A stretch of 64,000 nucleotides of DNA. Origin: Candidatus Nomurabacteria bacterium RIFCSPLOWO2_01_FULL_42_17 (GTDB lineage: Bacteria; Patescibacteriota; Minisyncoccia; Phycocordibacterales; UBA9973). The position numbers were made by a program, and so were the translations under genes. How positions within the stretch are numbered: the stretch's first letter is position 1; the number at the start of each line of letters is the position of its first letter. The notes under the pieces are model-generated. The model did no database searches. It worked only from the letters and a program-made list of their open reading frames with translations, and was not told where the DNA came from. Location of the stretch: contig MFVE01000008.1 in the NCBI GenBank assembly GCA_001785985.1, positions 8,751-72,750 on the forward strand, in the 5' to 3' direction. Below, piece by piece: positions 18,275-57,308 of the stretch.

Positions 18275-18356
18275 ACCTATATAATAACACAAAAATACAA
18301 CCCCTCCCTAGCCCTCCCCTTATCAAGGGAGGGGAAAATACAAATACAAAACGAAC

Positions 18357-19343: not shown

Positions 19344-19351
19344 TTTTCTTA

Positions 19352-19372
19352 TGTAGACGTCCGACGTCTACA
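19352..19372. repeat. REP1 palindrome copy (TGTAGACGTCCGACGTCTACA), 3' flank of RAYT1
   Basis: Perfect palindrome with 10-bp arms. Confidence 0.8.
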
Positions 19373-19376
19373 AGTG

Positions 19377-20084
19377 TTAATCATCATTAAAGTGAAAGTC
19401 GATTTCTTCTAAATTATCACGTCTATCTTTAAAAGATTTCTTCCCCCTACTCTCTCGCACTATATCAATTATTTCTTTTCCGTGTCGGTAAAAATTTTCA
19501 TAACCGCCAAACCATTCAAGAAATTTATTTCCTTCTTTGGGATTTATAATAAAAAAATTACCTTTTTCATATTCTTCTTCACTACTACGCACTAATTTTA
19601 ATTTATTTTTTGAAATATTATGCACTTTATAATTCCACATTACATAAGCAAAAATCATTTCAAAATAATTTTCCTTTTCAGCATAATTTGATTTAAATTT
19701 CCCTTGAAGCAACGCTCCGCTTCGCCGATTTTTGTCATTAAAATATCTTGTGTATCCTCCTTGTAATCTTTTCATAAATTCACTGATACCGCCATCAATT
19801 TCCTGTTTTAAAATAAAATGAAAATGATTCGGATTAAGACAATATTCAACAATAGAAACCAATCTTTCTTTATTTTTAGGAATTTGGAGACGTCGGACGT
19901 CTACAAATGATTCTTGTTCGCGAAGTGCTAGTTCTAAACTTCCCACAGGATCTTTATAGGAAAATAATTTCATAGATAATAAAAATCTTGCAGCATCTTT
20001 TTCATCCATGAAAATAGAGCGCTTATCAACGCCTCTATTGTAAATGTGGAAATAAGAACCAGAAATAAAGGGATGTTTTCTCAT
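19377..20084 (-). CDS. IS200/IS605-like HUH (Y1) tyrosine transposase of the REP-associated (RAYT/COG1943) type
   Basis: 235 aa. YHIYNRG first-strand block, HUH motif NHFHFIL, and a C-terminal LLQGKFKS...Y..AYVMWN helix region matching the LWQ.R(F/Y)..H...YIH.NP catalytic-Tyr region of RAYTs. Paralogous to 54271-55026. Confidence 0.7.
   Translation of the reverse strand: MRKHPFISGSYFHIYNRGVDKRSIFMDEKDAARFLLSMKLFSYKDPVGSLELALREQESFVDVRRLQIPKNKERLVSIVEYCLNPNHFHFILKQEIDGGISEFMKRLQGGYTRYFNDKNRRSGALLQGKFKSNYAEKENYFEMIFAYVMWNYKVHNISKNKLKLVRSSEEEYEKGNFFIINPKEGNKFLEWFGGYENFYRHGKEIIDIVRESRGKKSFKDRRDNLEEIDFHFNDD
19888..19908. repeat. REP1 palindrome copy (GAGACGTCGGACGTCTACA) embedded in-frame in RAYT1, encoding VDVRRL
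   Basis: Near-perfect copy, read directly. It lies about 200 bp from the gene's 5' end in the loop between the YHxYNRG block and the HUH motif. Confidence 0.8.
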
Positions 20085-20100
20085 ATCTTTAGTATATCAT

Positions 20101-20121
20101 TGTAGACGTCGGACGTCTACA
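20101..20121. repeat. REP1 palindrome copy (TGTAGACGTCGGACGTCTACA), 5' flank of RAYT1 / 3' flank of murG
   Basis: Perfect palindrome. Confidence 0.8.
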
Positions 20122-20124
20122 CGG

Positions 20125-53876: not shown

Positions 53877-54167
53877 TTAATAATTATTTAAATTTAATTT
53901 AACTACGAACCAACTAACAATAATGCTAATAATTATCGGTATTAATAAATTCCATATTGTTTTTGGTAACCAAGATTCTCTTTTATCGATTAAAAAATTT
54001 CTTTTATGCTCTAAAATTTCTAATCTATGAACTAATGGTTTTTTTGCTTGGTCAAATTGCCCATCAAGGATTGATTGAGGTATGGGTTTACGCAATTTGT
54101 TGGGCAAATCAAAAATCTCCTCCTTTATTTCTAATATTTCTTTTTCAATTTTATAGAACTTACTCAT
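53877..54167 (-). CDS. Hypothetical small C-terminally anchored protein
   Basis: 96 aa with a single C-terminal TM helix. Confidence 0.35.
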   Translation of the reverse strand: MSKFYKIEKEILEIKEEIFDLPNKLRKPIPQSILDGQFDQAKKPLVHRLEILEHKRNFLIDKRESWLPKTIWNLLIPIIISIIVSWFVVKLNLNNY

Positions 54168-54270
54168 ACGCGATAATTATATACCCATCTTTAATTTTTA
54201 GCAAGTTTTTCGTGACCACGAAATACTTGTCAAAAGTTAGTACATAGTATAAGATATAACATGTCAACTT

Positions 54271-54291
54271 GTGGAGGACGGTCCTTCACAG
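54271..54291. repeat. REP2 copy (GTGGAGGACGGTCCTTCACAG), 5' flank of RAYT2
   Basis: One mismatch from a perfect palindrome. Confidence 0.75.
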
Positions 54292-55026
54292 TATGATATA
54301 AATATGCAACGACCTCATACATTTTCTATCGACGAGTACTATCATTTATATAATCGCGGAACTGACAAGAGATCTATTTTTCTAGATGTTAATGATTATC
54401 ATCGATTTATTATGCTTCTCTATCTTTGTAATACAATCGAGCCATTTGATATGCAAAAGATTTTCCGCACTAACGGTGAAGGACCGTCCTTCACAGAAAT
54501 ATTTAAACTTCATCGAGGTCAGCCCATTATTTCCATAGGCACCTGGGTACTCATGCCAAATCATTTTCATCTATTGGTAAAAGAAATAGCTGAAGGAGGA
54601 ATCACGACATTCATGCGAAAAGTGAATACTGGATATTCAATGTATTTTAATAAAAAATATGGGAGAACGGGAAATCTATTTCAGGGAAAATTTAAATCAG
54701 AACATGCCGATAATGATAATTATCTTAAGTATCTTTTTTCATATATCCATCTTAATCCAATAAAATTAATCAGAGGCGAGGATAACTGGAAAGAAGTTGG
54801 AATTACAAATCTAAATAATGCAAAAGATTTTTTATCTAAATATGAATACTCAAGTCTGCCTAGTTATCTAACTATAAAGACTAATTTTAACAAAATTATT
54901 CAGAAAGATTTATTCCCTGAATATTTTCCTGATCCAAATAATATATGGGATGATATGACAGAATGGCTTACTTCTAAAAAAGAACCCGAAGAAAAAATTA
55001 TGAAGGACGGTCCTTCACAGAAATAA
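54271..55026 (+). CDS. IS200/IS605-like HUH (Y1) tyrosine transposase of the REP-associated (RAYT/COG1943) type, paralogue 2
   Basis: 251 aa. The start may be the internal Met at 54304. YHLYNRGTDKRSIF block, HUH motif NHFHLLV, and LFQGKFKSEH...YLFSYIHLNPIKL matching the RAYT catalytic-Tyr helix. Peptides GEGPSF and KDGPSQK are encoded by REP2 copies. Confidence 0.75.
   Translation: MEDGPSQYDINMQRPHTFSIDEYYHLYNRGTDKRSIFLDVNDYHRFIMLLYLCNTIEPFDMQKIFRTNGEGPSFTEIFKLHRGQPIISIGTWVLMPNHFHLLVKEIAEGGITTFMRKVNTGYSMYFNKKYGRTGNLFQGKFKSEHADNDNYLKYLFSYIHLNPIKLIRGEDNWKEVGITNLNNAKDFLSKYEYSSLPSYLTIKTNFNKIIQKDLFPEYFPDPNNIWDDMTEWLTSKKEPEEKIMKDGPSQK
54475..54498. repeat. REP2 copy (GGTGAAGGACCGTCCTTCACAGAAAT) embedded in-frame in RAYT2, encoding GEGPSFTE
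   Basis: Perfect 8-bp arms. Same loop position as the REP1 copy in paralogue 1. Confidence 0.8.
55002..55025. repeat. REP2 copy (TGAAGGACGGTCCTTCACAGAAAT) overlapping the RAYT2 stop
   Basis: Perfect palindrome. Confidence 0.8.
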
Positions 55027-55030
55027 AAAA

Positions 55031-55558
55031 ATGAAAAACAAAAAACAGAATTACAAAGAAAAAATATTAAATTTATTGTCGGAAAGAACTGCAGTCTCTT
55101 TTACTGAGATTAATAGATTCGTGAAGGACGGTCCTTCACAGAAATACGCTGTAACCCGTTCAATAAAGGGCTTGAAGGAGGCTGGACTAATAGAACAAAT
55201 AGCATCTCCGCAAAACGAATACGCTCGTTTGACAAAAGAGGGGCAAAAAAAAGTACATATTTTAAAATTAGATAGTGATACGACACTGGTGAATACCACT
55301 TGGGATGGATTTTGGAGAATTATTTTGATAGATCTGCCAGAAGACAGAAAAAGTGAACGCGAAAGTCTACGTTACCTTCTAAAAAAAGCCGGCTTCGTCT
55401 GCTTGAAGAATTCTGCTTGGATCTCCCCTTTCCCCTTTGAACATTTGTTCACGAATATAAAAAAAGACTTGGGACTAAGAGAAGAAATGATGATCATTGT
55501 CACCGAATTTGTGGACGAAGAGACAAAAAAATTTCTATTTGAAACTTTCGGGAAATAA
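55031..55558 (+). CDS. PaaX-family-like transcriptional regulator (N-terminal winged HTH and a C-terminal PaaX_C/Cas2-like domain)
   Basis: 175 aa. wHTH ILNLLSERTAVSFTEIN...VTRSIKGLKEAGLIE. C-terminal WDGFWRIILIDLPEDRKSERESLRYLLKKAGFVCLKNSAWISPFP matches the PaaX C-terminal pattern W.G.W....D.PE...R..LR..L...GF..L..S.W.SP. Carries an in-frame REP2 copy (VKDGPSQK). Confidence 0.55.
   Translation: MKNKKQNYKEKILNLLSERTAVSFTEINRFVKDGPSQKYAVTRSIKGLKEAGLIEQIASPQNEYARLTKEGQKKVHILKLDSDTTLVNTTWDGFWRIILIDLPEDRKSERESLRYLLKKAGFVCLKNSAWISPFPFEHLFTNIKKDLGLREEMMIIVTEFVDEETKKFLFETFGK
55122..55146. repeat. REP2 copy (GTGAAGGACGGTCCTTCACAGAAAT) in-frame within the PaaX-like gene
   Basis: Perfect palindrome. 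Confidence 0.8.
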
Positions 55559-55601: not shown

Positions 55602-57308
55602 TTAATAAACCTCTTGCTGATAGCATTTTTCACAATAAATTATTGGGGAATATTTTTCATCATAAACTGTTTCGACTTCGGTCTCGCATTTTGAACATTG
55701 ACGTTTAATGGTGCAAAGCGGCGGACGTTTTTGCAAACGACGAGTATGTCTGACATCAAAACAAACTCGCGGAAGTGGCAAATCCATTCTGCGATAAAAA
55801 GAAAGTTCGTTAGAAGTAATACGAAAAGCTCCCGTAGAATACGGCTGATCTTTTTCGGCGCACTCAATAATTTCATTCAAAATAGAATCATCGACTTCTG
55901 CTATTGTTTCCGGTAAATCAGAACTTTTGATGGTGGTCGTATAATTTTTCTTTTCTTTCTCTTTCCAGCTGTATCCCCTTTTCAGCGCTTCCGTCTTAGA
56001 AAGTGGATAAAAATCTATCGCCGCAGTTTCATTATAGGCAAACGAAGACAAATCGGCAGGGAAAAACTCTCCATATCCATAGGATTTTCCTGTTTTATCT
56101 ACATATGGCATATCCTGCATATGCTTGATGATTTTTGGCAACAATACCTCATATTCTTCCTTCGTATATTTTTTATTTAAAATAGAATACTCGCCCTTCT
56201 TCAAACCTATGCATCCAAAGCAGTATCTAGAACTTGGACAAGAATCACAGTAGTATAGATCATGGGCGCCAGTCCAACATTGTGAACAGAAAAAAATTCT
56301 TGAATCGTTTATGCCACAATTTGCTGATTCATAAATAAGTTCAGAAGAATCGCCCCACTGGAAATGATCCATGCAGTCCTGTTCGTTGAATGCGAAATAA
56401 ATATATTTGCAATCCTTTAAATTCATACAGCCGAAAGAATTTTTAACATTTTCACAATTAAGAAACCAATTACCCGAAACTTTATTTGATTTTAAAGACA
56501 TAATTGCTCTCTCTGGAAACTTCTTCCTAAATTCATTAAATTTAACATCCATCATGACAATACCTGAATCAGTATTCAATTCAAACTCTTTGAGTTTTTC
56601 AAAATATTCTTCTTTGGTGTATTGCTTATTGAAAATACAAAATTGTTTATTAACCAAATTAACACAGCCAATGCAGTCAGAGCAATTTCGACAAGCGTAT
56701 AAAAATATAGAATCACGACACTCAGCGCATTCTTGAGAAAATCTGGTTTTATAACATTTATTGCAATCTATACATTCGTAGCATAGCTCGCAATGGTTCA
56801 CGTTAAAACAATCTACACAATTTTTCACATTTCGAGCCGTATAAGTATATAGCGAATCTTCACAATCCGAAGCTCGGAAAACCATATAACAATTCTTTAA
56901 ATCGTGCACTCTATGTGTGTATTCACTATTGATAGAAAAACCCTGGCGGACAAGTGCCATGCGCGGAACTTTATTAAATAATTCTTGAAATTGTGAAAAA
57001 AATGGCCGAGAAAAATCGTATTCTTGGCCATATTGATACGGATCCCATTCATCAGAGTAAAATTCTTTGGTTTCGTAGACCGGAAAAGGCGCTTCGGGTG
57101 GATACATACTAAAAATATCTTGCCCGCTCAAGTCAGACTTTCTTTTGTAAAATACTCGCTCATTGGCACCCACCATGCGTCGCACTGACCGGCACTCTGG
57201 ACAAAAAGTTGGTGGCGGGACTTTTATTTTTTCATAAAAAGAAAAATCATCCAGTTCGATGGTGAAATCTTTTTTACAATTTTGACAATTTTTTGTTTCG
57301 TTTTGCAT
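55602..57308 (-). CDS. Cys-rich protein with duplicated FYxK-x2-(V/L)P-x-P-x2-C-x2-CR zinc-ribbon modules at both ends and a central period-8 Cys-repeat region (copy B)
   Basis: 568 aa. N-terminus CQNCKKDF...FYEKIKVPPPTFCPECR. C-terminus FYRRMDLPLPRVCFDVR...CSKCETEVET...IIYCEKCYQQEVY. Central NCVDCFNVNHCELCYECIDCNKCY... and two YSILNK(K/Q)YTKEEYE blocks. Confidence 0.6.
   Translation of the reverse strand: MQNETKNCQNCKKDFTIELDDFSFYEKIKVPPPTFCPECRSVRRMVGANERVFYKRKSDLSGQDIFSMYPPEAPFPVYETKEFYSDEWDPYQYGQEYDFSRPFFSQFQELFNKVPRMALVRQGFSINSEYTHRVHDLKNCYMVFRASDCEDSLYTYTARNVKNCVDCFNVNHCELCYECIDCNKCYKTRFSQECAECRDSIFLYACRNCSDCIGCVNLVNKQFCIFNKQYTKEEYFEKLKEFELNTDSGIVMMDVKFNEFRKKFPERAIMSLKSNKVSGNWFLNCENVKNSFGCMNLKDCKYIYFAFNEQDCMDHFQWGDSSELIYESANCGINDSRIFFCSQCWTGAHDLYYCDSCPSSRYCFGCIGLKKGEYSILNKKYTKEEYEVLLPKIIKHMQDMPYVDKTGKSYGYGEFFPADLSSFAYNETAAIDFYPLSKTEALKRGYSWKEKEKKNYTTTIKSSDLPETIAEVDDSILNEIIECAEKDQPYSTGAFRITSNELSFYRRMDLPLPRVCFDVRHTRRLQKRPPLCTIKRQCSKCETEVETVYDEKYSPIIYCEKCYQQEVY

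Follow-up and report, generated by a model that had tools for sequence, protein, structure and literature searches.

What kind of element is formed when a transposase-like gene is framed, and even interrupted in frame, by copies of a single short palindrome? This question is raised by a 64-kb stretch of the tiny genome of the groundwater organism Candidatus Nomurabacteria bacterium RIFCSPLOWO2_01_FULL_42_17 (contig MFVE01000008.1, positions 8,751 to 72,750; the whole stretch is called the window here). It contains two such genes, RAYT2 on the plus strand and RAYT1 on the minus strand, each with its own palindrome. Its PaaX-like protein and its kinase are identical to proteins of this organism. 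The region 54200–55200 was read directly; palindromes were found by pattern search and checked against dinucleotide shuffles. We consider it probable that each unit is a compact REPtron, which combines a gene for a Y1 HuH single-stranded DNA (ssDNA) endonuclease/transposase of the REP-associated tyrosine transposase (RAYT) type with its own cognate hairpin resembling a repetitive extragenic palindrome (REP). The RAYT2 unit and the adjacent gene comprise the following features.

54271–54289, plus strand: 5' copy of the RAYT2 palindrome, GTGGAGGACGGTCCTTCAC; one mismatch creates a GTGG foot; DNA hairpin of −5.5 kcal/mol
54304–55026, plus strand: RAYT2 coding sequence, 240 amino acids from ATG 54304, with the HuH motif H87-F-H89 and the catalytic tyrosine motif Y147-IHLNP
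54476–54500, plus strand: internal in-frame copy, GTGAAGGACCGTCCTTCAC with an AGAAAT tail, encoding GEGPSFTE
55001–55024, plus strand: 3' copy, TGAAGGACGGTCCTTCACAGAAAT, encoding the C-terminal KDGPSQK, running into the stop codon (55024–55026) and forming the right boundary of the unit
55031–55558, plus strand: PaaX-like regulator gene (winged-helix region and PaaX_M domain), behind RAYT2 as second gene
55121–55145, plus strand: fourth copy, GTGAAGGACGGTCCTTCACAGAAAT, in frame, encoding VKDGPSQK in a hypervariable loop of the PaaX-like protein

The RAYT2 palindrome has the form (G)TGAAGGAC-S-GTCCTTCAC, or TGAAGGAC-S-GTCCTTCA when its CAGAAAT tail is included, and its four copies lie within 54271–55145. 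These copies had been reported in a preliminary description of the window, with coordinates that proved accurate to 1–2 nt. In the pattern search, TGAAGGACNGTCCTTCACAGAAAT was found exactly at 54477–54500, 55001–55024, and 55122–55145, and the 15-nt core recurs with one mismatch (GGAGGAC...) at 54273–54287. No further copies of this palindrome were detected in the window, for which shuffled sequences gave an expectation of 0. The peptides that had been read from the internal copy (GEGPSFTE), the C-terminus (...KDGPSQK before the stop), and the PaaX-like gene (VKDGPSQK) were translated correctly. The palindrome indeed bounds the gene at both ends as described, although the 5' copy lacks the CAGAAAT tail and reads CAGTATG. 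This copy begins with GTGG, corresponding to a GT[AG]G foot, and the remaining copies begin with GTGA. When folded as ssDNA, the palindrome units reached −7.3 and −8.2 kcal/mol, and an extended form present on other contigs reached −11.3 kcal/mol.

The gene between the outer copies is a RAYT gene, but the frame of 251 amino acids originally assigned to it, starting at GTG 54271, is probably over-extended. In most aligned homologues the start corresponds to ATG 54304, and a −10-like hexamer is found with its end 6 nt upstream of this codon. The 5' copy, located 15 nt upstream of this likely start, therefore most likely lies upstream of RAYT2 and outside the gene. ATG 54261–54263, near the start coordinate of the preliminary description, is what remains of the start of the ancestral PaaX gene. 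Annotators should be aware that upstream-extended calls of several such 'transposases' run through the 5' hairpin: this palindrome is open in the extended frame and gives rise to spurious N-termini such as MEDGPSQYDIN (window 54271–54303), and the public gene calls P0001, P0002, P0015, and P0022 begin upstream of the real ATG.

The affiliation of the encoded proteins was assessed by family profiles, predicted structure, and motifs. RAYT2 matched the Pfam family Y1_Tnp (E = 2e-7; 31.6 bits, cutoff 23), and NCBIfam NF047646 (REP_Tyr_transpos, REP-associated tyrosine transposase) was the sole family match of both paralogues (E = 2e-11 and 2e-6). The AlphaFold model of RAYT2 had a pLDDT of 86, with the lowest confidence in residues 51–70, and the peptide GEGPSFTE of the internal copy sits in the low-confidence loop predicted between helix A and the strand leading to HuH. 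In the Foldseek search with this model, the best match was 4er8_A, the E. coli RAYT bound to a REP hairpin (E = 2e-6; TM 0.66 on the target), and the transposases of ISDra2 and IS608 ranked below it. RAYT2 carries the motifs N86-H87-F-H89 and Y147-IHL-N151-P152, of which H87, H89, Y147, and N151 are invariant in an alignment of 26 homologues. The motif Y---NP is the signature of all class 2 (TnpA-REP) enzymes, whereas IS200 has Y---Q (Quentin et al., 2018; PMC6006769), and YIHLNP of RAYT2 fits the class 2 signature. The assignment of both proteins to the Y1 HuH enzymes of the RAYT type is supported by these data. As anticipated in the preliminary description, the proteins group with RAYT/Y1 enzymes, and the palindrome also occurs elsewhere. 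The family comprises 5,770 proteins at E ≤ 1e-3, and the named ones are nearly all from Patescibacteria. These results also bear on the possibility that the units are ordinary autonomous insertion sequences (IS) of the IS200/IS605 type whose hairpins are the transposon ends. Both the motif Y---NP instead of the Y---Q of IS200 and the top structural match to a RAYT rather than to IS608 or ISDra2 speak against it.

The second paralogue was found by a tblastn search of the window with the RAYT2 protein, and its locus repeats the arrangement described above.

19377–20084, minus strand: RAYT1 coding sequence, 235 amino acids, 37% identical to RAYT2
20102–20120, minus strand: 5' copy of the RAYT1 palindrome, 4 nt past the murG stop codon and followed by TATACT, a −10-like hexamer with its end 6 nt upstream of the ATG
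19886–19904, minus strand: internal in-frame copy with one mismatch, encoding VDVRRL; the loop is that of RAYT2, the codon phase a different one
19353–19371, minus strand: 3' copy, 5 nt past the RAYT1 stop and 9 nt before the ATG of a gene for an APH-like kinase

The RAYT1 palindrome, GTAGACGTC-S-GACGTCTAC, occupies upstream, internal, and 3' positions as in RAYT2, and it begins with GTAG and ends with CTAC, thus having a 'double foot'. It was found neither elsewhere in the window nor in 1.5 Mb of other loci. Pattern searches at both loci thus upheld the earlier view that there are two RAYT paralogues, each with a private palindrome. Only two copies in the window, 37% identical to each other and equipped with different hairpins, are not what an ordinary IS200/IS605-type element would lead one to expect.

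Whether this layout is peculiar to the window was examined in a set of 82 loci, consisting of 80 homologous loci from assemblies (nearly all labelled Patescibacteria) and the two window genes, which was searched for perfect hairpins. Loci and contig stretches are designated by L numbers below. In 46 of the 82 loci, the same palindrome (≤1 mismatch) was present at both gene ends, 30–70 nt upstream of the start and at the stop codon, and 19 of these 46 loci carry it also inside the gene, at +144 to +182. The palindrome is constant within a locus and varies between loci, with 34 different 7-nt arms in 48 loci and an AAGG...CCTT core common to many of them. Of 38 pairs of 5' and 3' copies, 37 agree exactly in their loops, 15 in direct and 22 in reverse-complementary orientation, and in L004 an imperfect palindrome, GAAGGTCGGAGCTTC, is identical at all three sites. 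This loop identity and the imperfect palindrome of L004 indicate that the copies of a locus stem from one sequence and are not independently selected stems. The internal copy is always located 20–24 codons upstream of HuH, and in 20 of 22 loci it is centred on codon position 2, giving rise to peptides of the type [QEK]-G-x-[STPA]-[LF]. A subfamily with a shorter loop has kept the outer copies and is missing the internal one, which has decayed in some other loci. The fixed site and phase of the internal copy, together with a sequence that tracks the outer copies, argue for replacement in place over repeated insertion. The same perfect palindrome at both ends, instead of distinct imperfect hairpins at the left and right ends, is a further point at which the units depart from an IS200/IS605-type element.

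The upstream regions were aligned on the start codon to describe the promoter context. In 14 loci the end of a −10-like hexamer is exactly 6 nt upstream of the ATG, and in about eight more the distance is 7–10 nt; the 5' palindrome lies directly upstream of the −10, covering the −35/spacer region. In RAYT2, the −10-like sequence is TATGAT (54292–54297). No Shine-Dalgarno-like sequence upstream of the ATG was apparent in the sequences inspected by eye, for which no formal test was made. Because this arrangement of −10 and palindrome is conserved across loci, the RAYT mRNA is probably leaderless, a reading that rests on the multi-locus upstream alignment, and the 5' hairpin would act on DNA. By analogy, hairpin extrusion or RAYT binding at the 5' copy probably limits RAYT expression.

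The same arrangement bears on the hardly credible explanation that the palindromes are RNA-level elements, such as terminators, RNase sites, or mRNA stabilisers, without any link to the enzyme. Classical REPs do affect mRNA stability (PMC3733652), and on the minus strand the 3' copy and a T-run score as terminator-like. However, transcription is inferred to start downstream of the 5' copy, a terminator inside the gene would cut the enzyme short, and a private sequence at three sites per paralogue would be left unexplained. A terminator or other RNA element was rejected in view of the lack of Rfam matches and of T-runs after the hairpins on the sense strand. According to a different alternative, the palindromes are double-stranded operators of a dimeric regulator, either the PaaX-like protein or RAYT itself, and serve regulation only instead of being mobile REP-like elements. 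The palindromes are perfect dyads of 17–19 bp, and the 5' copy overlaps the −35/spacer in most loci. Pairs of upstream and intragenic operators are represented by lac O1/O2 and gal OE/OI, which the combination of an upstream and an intragenic palindrome recalls. The fold of the enzyme is less easily reconciled with this alternative, since the predicted structure is that of a protein binding single-strand hairpins and has no helix-turn-helix. Its remaining difficulties emerge from the insertion sites and the dispersed copies described below.

A comparison with relatives without RAYT allowed the insertion site of the RAYT2 unit to be located. Two further features of the window are needed here.

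54208–54223, plus strand: operator-like palindrome TTTCGTGACCACGAAA of the ancestral PaaX promoter; context, outside the mobile unit
54227–54267, plus strand: ancestral PaaX promoter TTGTCA-17-TAAGAT with the relic start ATGTCAA (54261–54267); left junction, from a promoter scan and the empty-site alignment

In relatives with a 74–79% identical PaaX, dnaK and PaaX are divergent and 147–205 bp apart, with no RAYT between them. Their PaaX promoter block consists of TTTCGTGACCACGAAA, TTGTCA-17-TATAAT, and then ATGTCAAGAAAA, which starts PaaX; the TTTCGTGACCACGAAA block is likewise found upstream of PaaX in the RAYT-less relatives L140–L143 and L147. The window retains the promoter block upstream of RAYT2 up to ATGTCAA, followed by ctt and the 5' palindrome. 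In the alignment with the empty sites, the ATGTCAA relic places the REP-RAYT2-REP unit (about 54268–55030) after nucleotide 7 of the ancestral PaaX open reading frame (ORF). PaaX now begins at a new ATG, 4 bases past the RAYT2 stop, and MKNK... replaces MSRK...; the right junction can be placed to within a few nucleotides only. The preliminary description, which had the unit inserted between dnaK and a Cys-rich gene, was thus right about the neighbourhood, but the precise location is between the old PaaX promoter and the PaaX ORF. A GTCAA relic also precedes the 5' REP in L098, L003, L083/L101, and L004; the spacer between relic and REP measures 3–4 nt in the window, L098, and L003 and about 21–23 nt in L083/L101 and L004. 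The RAYT1 block occupies the junction of the murG stop and the kinase start, which reads TAA-A-ATG in L144, and extends 4 and 9 nt beyond the outer palindromes. Compared with the empty sites, the junctions of RAYT1 (TAA/ccgt-REP ... REP-ataagaaa/aATG, with slashes at the borders) and that of RAYT2 (ATGTCAA/ctt-REP) are consistent with seamless insertion and excision without target-site duplication. The hairpin-RAYT-hairpin arrangement is a discrete presence/absence unit with junctions within a few nucleotides of the outer hairpins.

An IS200/IS605-type element would likewise produce discrete indels that are bordered by the hairpins and show no obvious duplication of the target, and the compact size of the units (about 760–780 bp) and their own promoter suit it as well. 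RAYT-bearing and RAYT-less forms are moreover interspersed in the PaaX tree, which is weakly resolved and compatible both with repeated seamless loss and with repeated insertion at a single site. However, the insertion site is shared by lineages whose RAYTs are only 58–80% identical, which suggests that descent has been mainly vertical and over a long time. Together with the occurrence of the palindrome alone and in doublets away from any RAYT, this makes ordinary insertion sequences an unlikely explanation of the units.

The search for dispersed copies was extended to metagenomes by an exact scan of JGI contigs with TGAAGGACSGTCCTTCAC, which returned 57 stretches. About 30 of them have a low G + C content (<45%, in most cases 33–41%), like Patescibacteria contigs, and RAYT homologues are present on only 6 of these. 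The roughly two dozen low-GC stretches without RAYT contain lone copies or inverted doublets spaced 31–34 nt apart (L095, L099, L126). These doublets of the RAYT2 type (L095, 2131–2178; L099, 4302–4349; L126, 3210–3260) resemble REPINs (inverted REP doublets) and lie directly upstream of an opposite-strand start codon, with no RAYT nearby. Some metagenome copies fall inside long open frames, and in L133 the palindrome encodes the same VKDGPSQK in an ORF of 313 amino acids that appears methyltransferase-like as read by eye. L133, which is from the same sample as the window, was rejected as a dispersed copy in the source genome because its locus tags carry the prefix A3H53 of a different Nomurabacteria genome. 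In the family members L022, L013, and L071, additional cognate copies were located either ahead of the gene or at a distance of a few kb, and all fetched flanks, 890 kb in total, yielded 40 matches with up to two mismatches. Across these contigs and loci, the dispersal of the palindrome is real but sparse.

The fourth copy of the window lies in the PaaX-like gene. The PaaX-like protein is 70–86% identical across the more than 100 relatives listed, many of them Nomurabacteria, with the exception of one segment of 8–40 residues that differs in every lineage. The palindrome fills exactly this segment, and does so only in the window and its closest relatives. The preliminary description had suggested checking whether the PaaX-like protein is intact in relatives without the repeat; in the window the protein is intact, with the fourth copy inside the hypervariable loop. 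Since the loop of another relative holds a different palindrome, the PaaX-like loop appears to be a recurrent landing site. This second palindromic element, acccctccc..CCTCCCCTTATCAAGGGAGG, is located at 18300–18335 of the window, between the kinase and gltX genes, and a near-identical one lies in frame (PSQPPLIKGGE...) in the PaaX-like gene loop of another Nomurabacterium (P0208; L147, about 150–215).

With these data the operator explanation can be judged, and it appears quite improbable. Doublets and in-frame copies in unrelated genes show the palindrome at places remote from any RAYT, and the PaaX-like gene adjoins RAYT in the window lineage only. The PaaX-like regulator was rejected as the palindrome-binding protein on the grounds of this limited adjacency and of the different dyad, TTTCGTGACCACGAAA, in its own promoter. 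This conserved dyad, next to the promoter (54227–54255) in the divergent region between dnaK and PaaX, is found in all relatives, with or without RAYT. It resembles an operator of the PaaX-like regulator, and this regulator may govern the dnaK-grpE chaperone cluster.

Several observations weigh against an interpretation of the two units as REPtrons. The NF047646 scores of 43.8 and 28.1 bits are below the curated cutoff of 80, a sequence profile search against PDB chains gave no match, and RAYT1, which has HFH and Y---N, carries Y in place of the P of Y---NP. Most palindromes of the family (CCAAGG..., ACAAGG..., GGGAAGG...) are without the canonical GT[AG]G foot, and the RAYT2 promoter was not called at threshold by a consensus promoter scan of the window. 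Finally, neither palindrome occurs in the window beyond the two gene units, and the copy number is therefore far below that of classical REPs.

If the two units are nevertheless REPtrons, as we consider probable, their behaviour can be outlined by analogy with TnpA-REP of E. coli and the TnpA proteins of IS608 and ISDra2. RAYT would bind its own hairpin in ssDNA and would cut and rejoin at the hairpin foot, thereby spreading REP copies and occasionally moving or removing the whole unit seamlessly. The gene-linked copies would be resident substrates of the enzyme, whose action would keep them identical, and the 5' copy over the −35/spacer would act as a brake on the RAYT promoter. The internal copy and the copy in PaaX would be REP insertions tolerated in surface loops, the internal one having been fixed early in the family and then overwritten in place as the cognate sequence changed. 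Enzymology, autoregulation, and copy homogenisation are thus predictions for RAYT2 and RAYT1 drawn from better known enzymes. A more far-reaching and doubtful version would place the unit halfway between insertion sequences and domesticated RAYTs, as a self-contained and still mobile module that excises and inserts seamlessly, with a 5' hairpin that controls its leaderless promoter and an enzyme that overwrites all gene-linked hairpins. Since one of these hairpins encodes part of the enzyme, enzyme and target would then change in concert. If true, enzyme-driven homogenisation of an enzyme's own recognition sites would be a new activity and a window on the diversification of RAYT/REP specificity.

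Some further features of the surroundings were recorded. In L144 (940–1560), the slot between murG and the kinase gene, which in the window (19344–20124) is taken by RAYT1, contains a GNAT acetyltransferase gene between two copies of ca[ct]gagaaaTAAaATGga, and in L146 (3440–4000) it contains a gene for a pilin-like protein (N_methyl). An ORF of 96 amino acids without family match and with a hydrophobic C-terminus (53877–54167, minus strand) separates dnaK from the old PaaX promoter; the RAYT-less relatives L140 and L142 lack it there. Between PaaX and grpE, a Cys-rich protein of 568 amino acids without Pfam match is encoded (55602–57308, minus strand). A paralogue with 38% identity is encoded about 7 kb away; tandem paralogues occur in L140, L142, L080, and L004, and the protein is also encoded in L001 (1483–3144). 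A blastn search for a plasmid origin gave no match in PLSDB.

Work on RAYT/REP systems has been confined almost entirely to Proteobacteria, whose hundreds of REP copies make it difficult to tell which sites are important for the enzyme. The family in the Patescibacteria, with more than 5,700 proteins, represents a reduced core that consists of one gene and three cognate hairpins at fixed positions, and it comes in dozens of natural specificity variants. It offers a covariation data set on how Y1 enzymes read hairpins, evidence at the nucleotide level that a whole REPtron can be gained or lost, and examples of 8-codon palindrome insertions tolerated in the proteins of genomes almost without spare DNA. 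A full-text literature search retrieved no paper that links RAYTs or REPINs with Patescibacteria or the candidate phyla radiation (CPR), in agreement with the earlier remark that the pattern had not been characterised there.

Bertels and Rainey reportedly described RAYT genes flanked by cognate REP/REPIN sequences in 2011. Class 2 REPtrons, RAYT genes with flanking cognate REPs or REPINs, are known from E. coli, Pseudomonas, and Stenotrophomonas (PMC6006769). The REPtron concept, a private REP for each RAYT paralogue, REPs that overlap the ends of RAYT genes, and in-frame REPs in unrelated genes have all been published already (PMC6006769, PMC3733652). The units of the window agree with REPtrons in their Y1 HuH enzyme with Y---NP and RAYT-like fold and in being low-copy, diverged paralogues with private palindromes that flank the gene; the RAYT2 palindrome also occurs elsewhere as singletons or inverted doublets. 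They differ in the host, a member of the Nomurabacteria within the Patescibacteria, in the few dispersed copies, none of which lies in the 64 kb outside the units, and in their short perfect dyads with stems of 8–13 bp, mostly without the GT[AG]G foot. The 5' copy inside a promoter that is probably leaderless, and the appearance of the whole unit as a clean indel, are further differences; REPtrons have been described as not transposing as whole units (PMC6006769). For tnpA-REP genes, in-frame REPs have been reported as a special trait of subclass 2.4, where they lie between HuH and Y (PMC6006769). The RAYT/REP reading of the preliminary description is supported, but its internal in-frame REP is therefore less novel than had been implied. 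As in subclass 2.4, a cognate REP is found inside the RAYT coding sequence, in a peripheral variable region and with the frame kept. Unlike in that subclass, its site is 20–24 codons upstream of HuH, is common to a large share of a family of thousands, keeps to a single codon phase in 20 of 22 loci, and follows the flanking copies in sequence.

With the IS200/IS605 elements IS608 and ISDra2, the units share the catalytic fold, hairpins just inside both ends, a seemingly seamless insertion, and a size of about 0.7–0.8 kb; Y---Q of the IS200 type, distinct imperfect left and right hairpins, and many near-identical copies were not seen here. Like the palindromic elements of Rickettsia (RPEs) and the intragenic GTAG/CGTC REPs (PMC3733652), the short palindromes occur in frame in loops of functional proteins, as in the PaaX-like gene and the ORF of L133. 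In contrast to these elements, the insert is only about 24 nt (8 codons) long and is directly tied to an adjacent cognate RAYT. Compared with all these systems, what is new here is the host group, the minimal layout with three hairpins that a huge family has conserved, the fixed site and phase of the internal copy, the overlap with the promoter, and the indel evidence for the whole unit.

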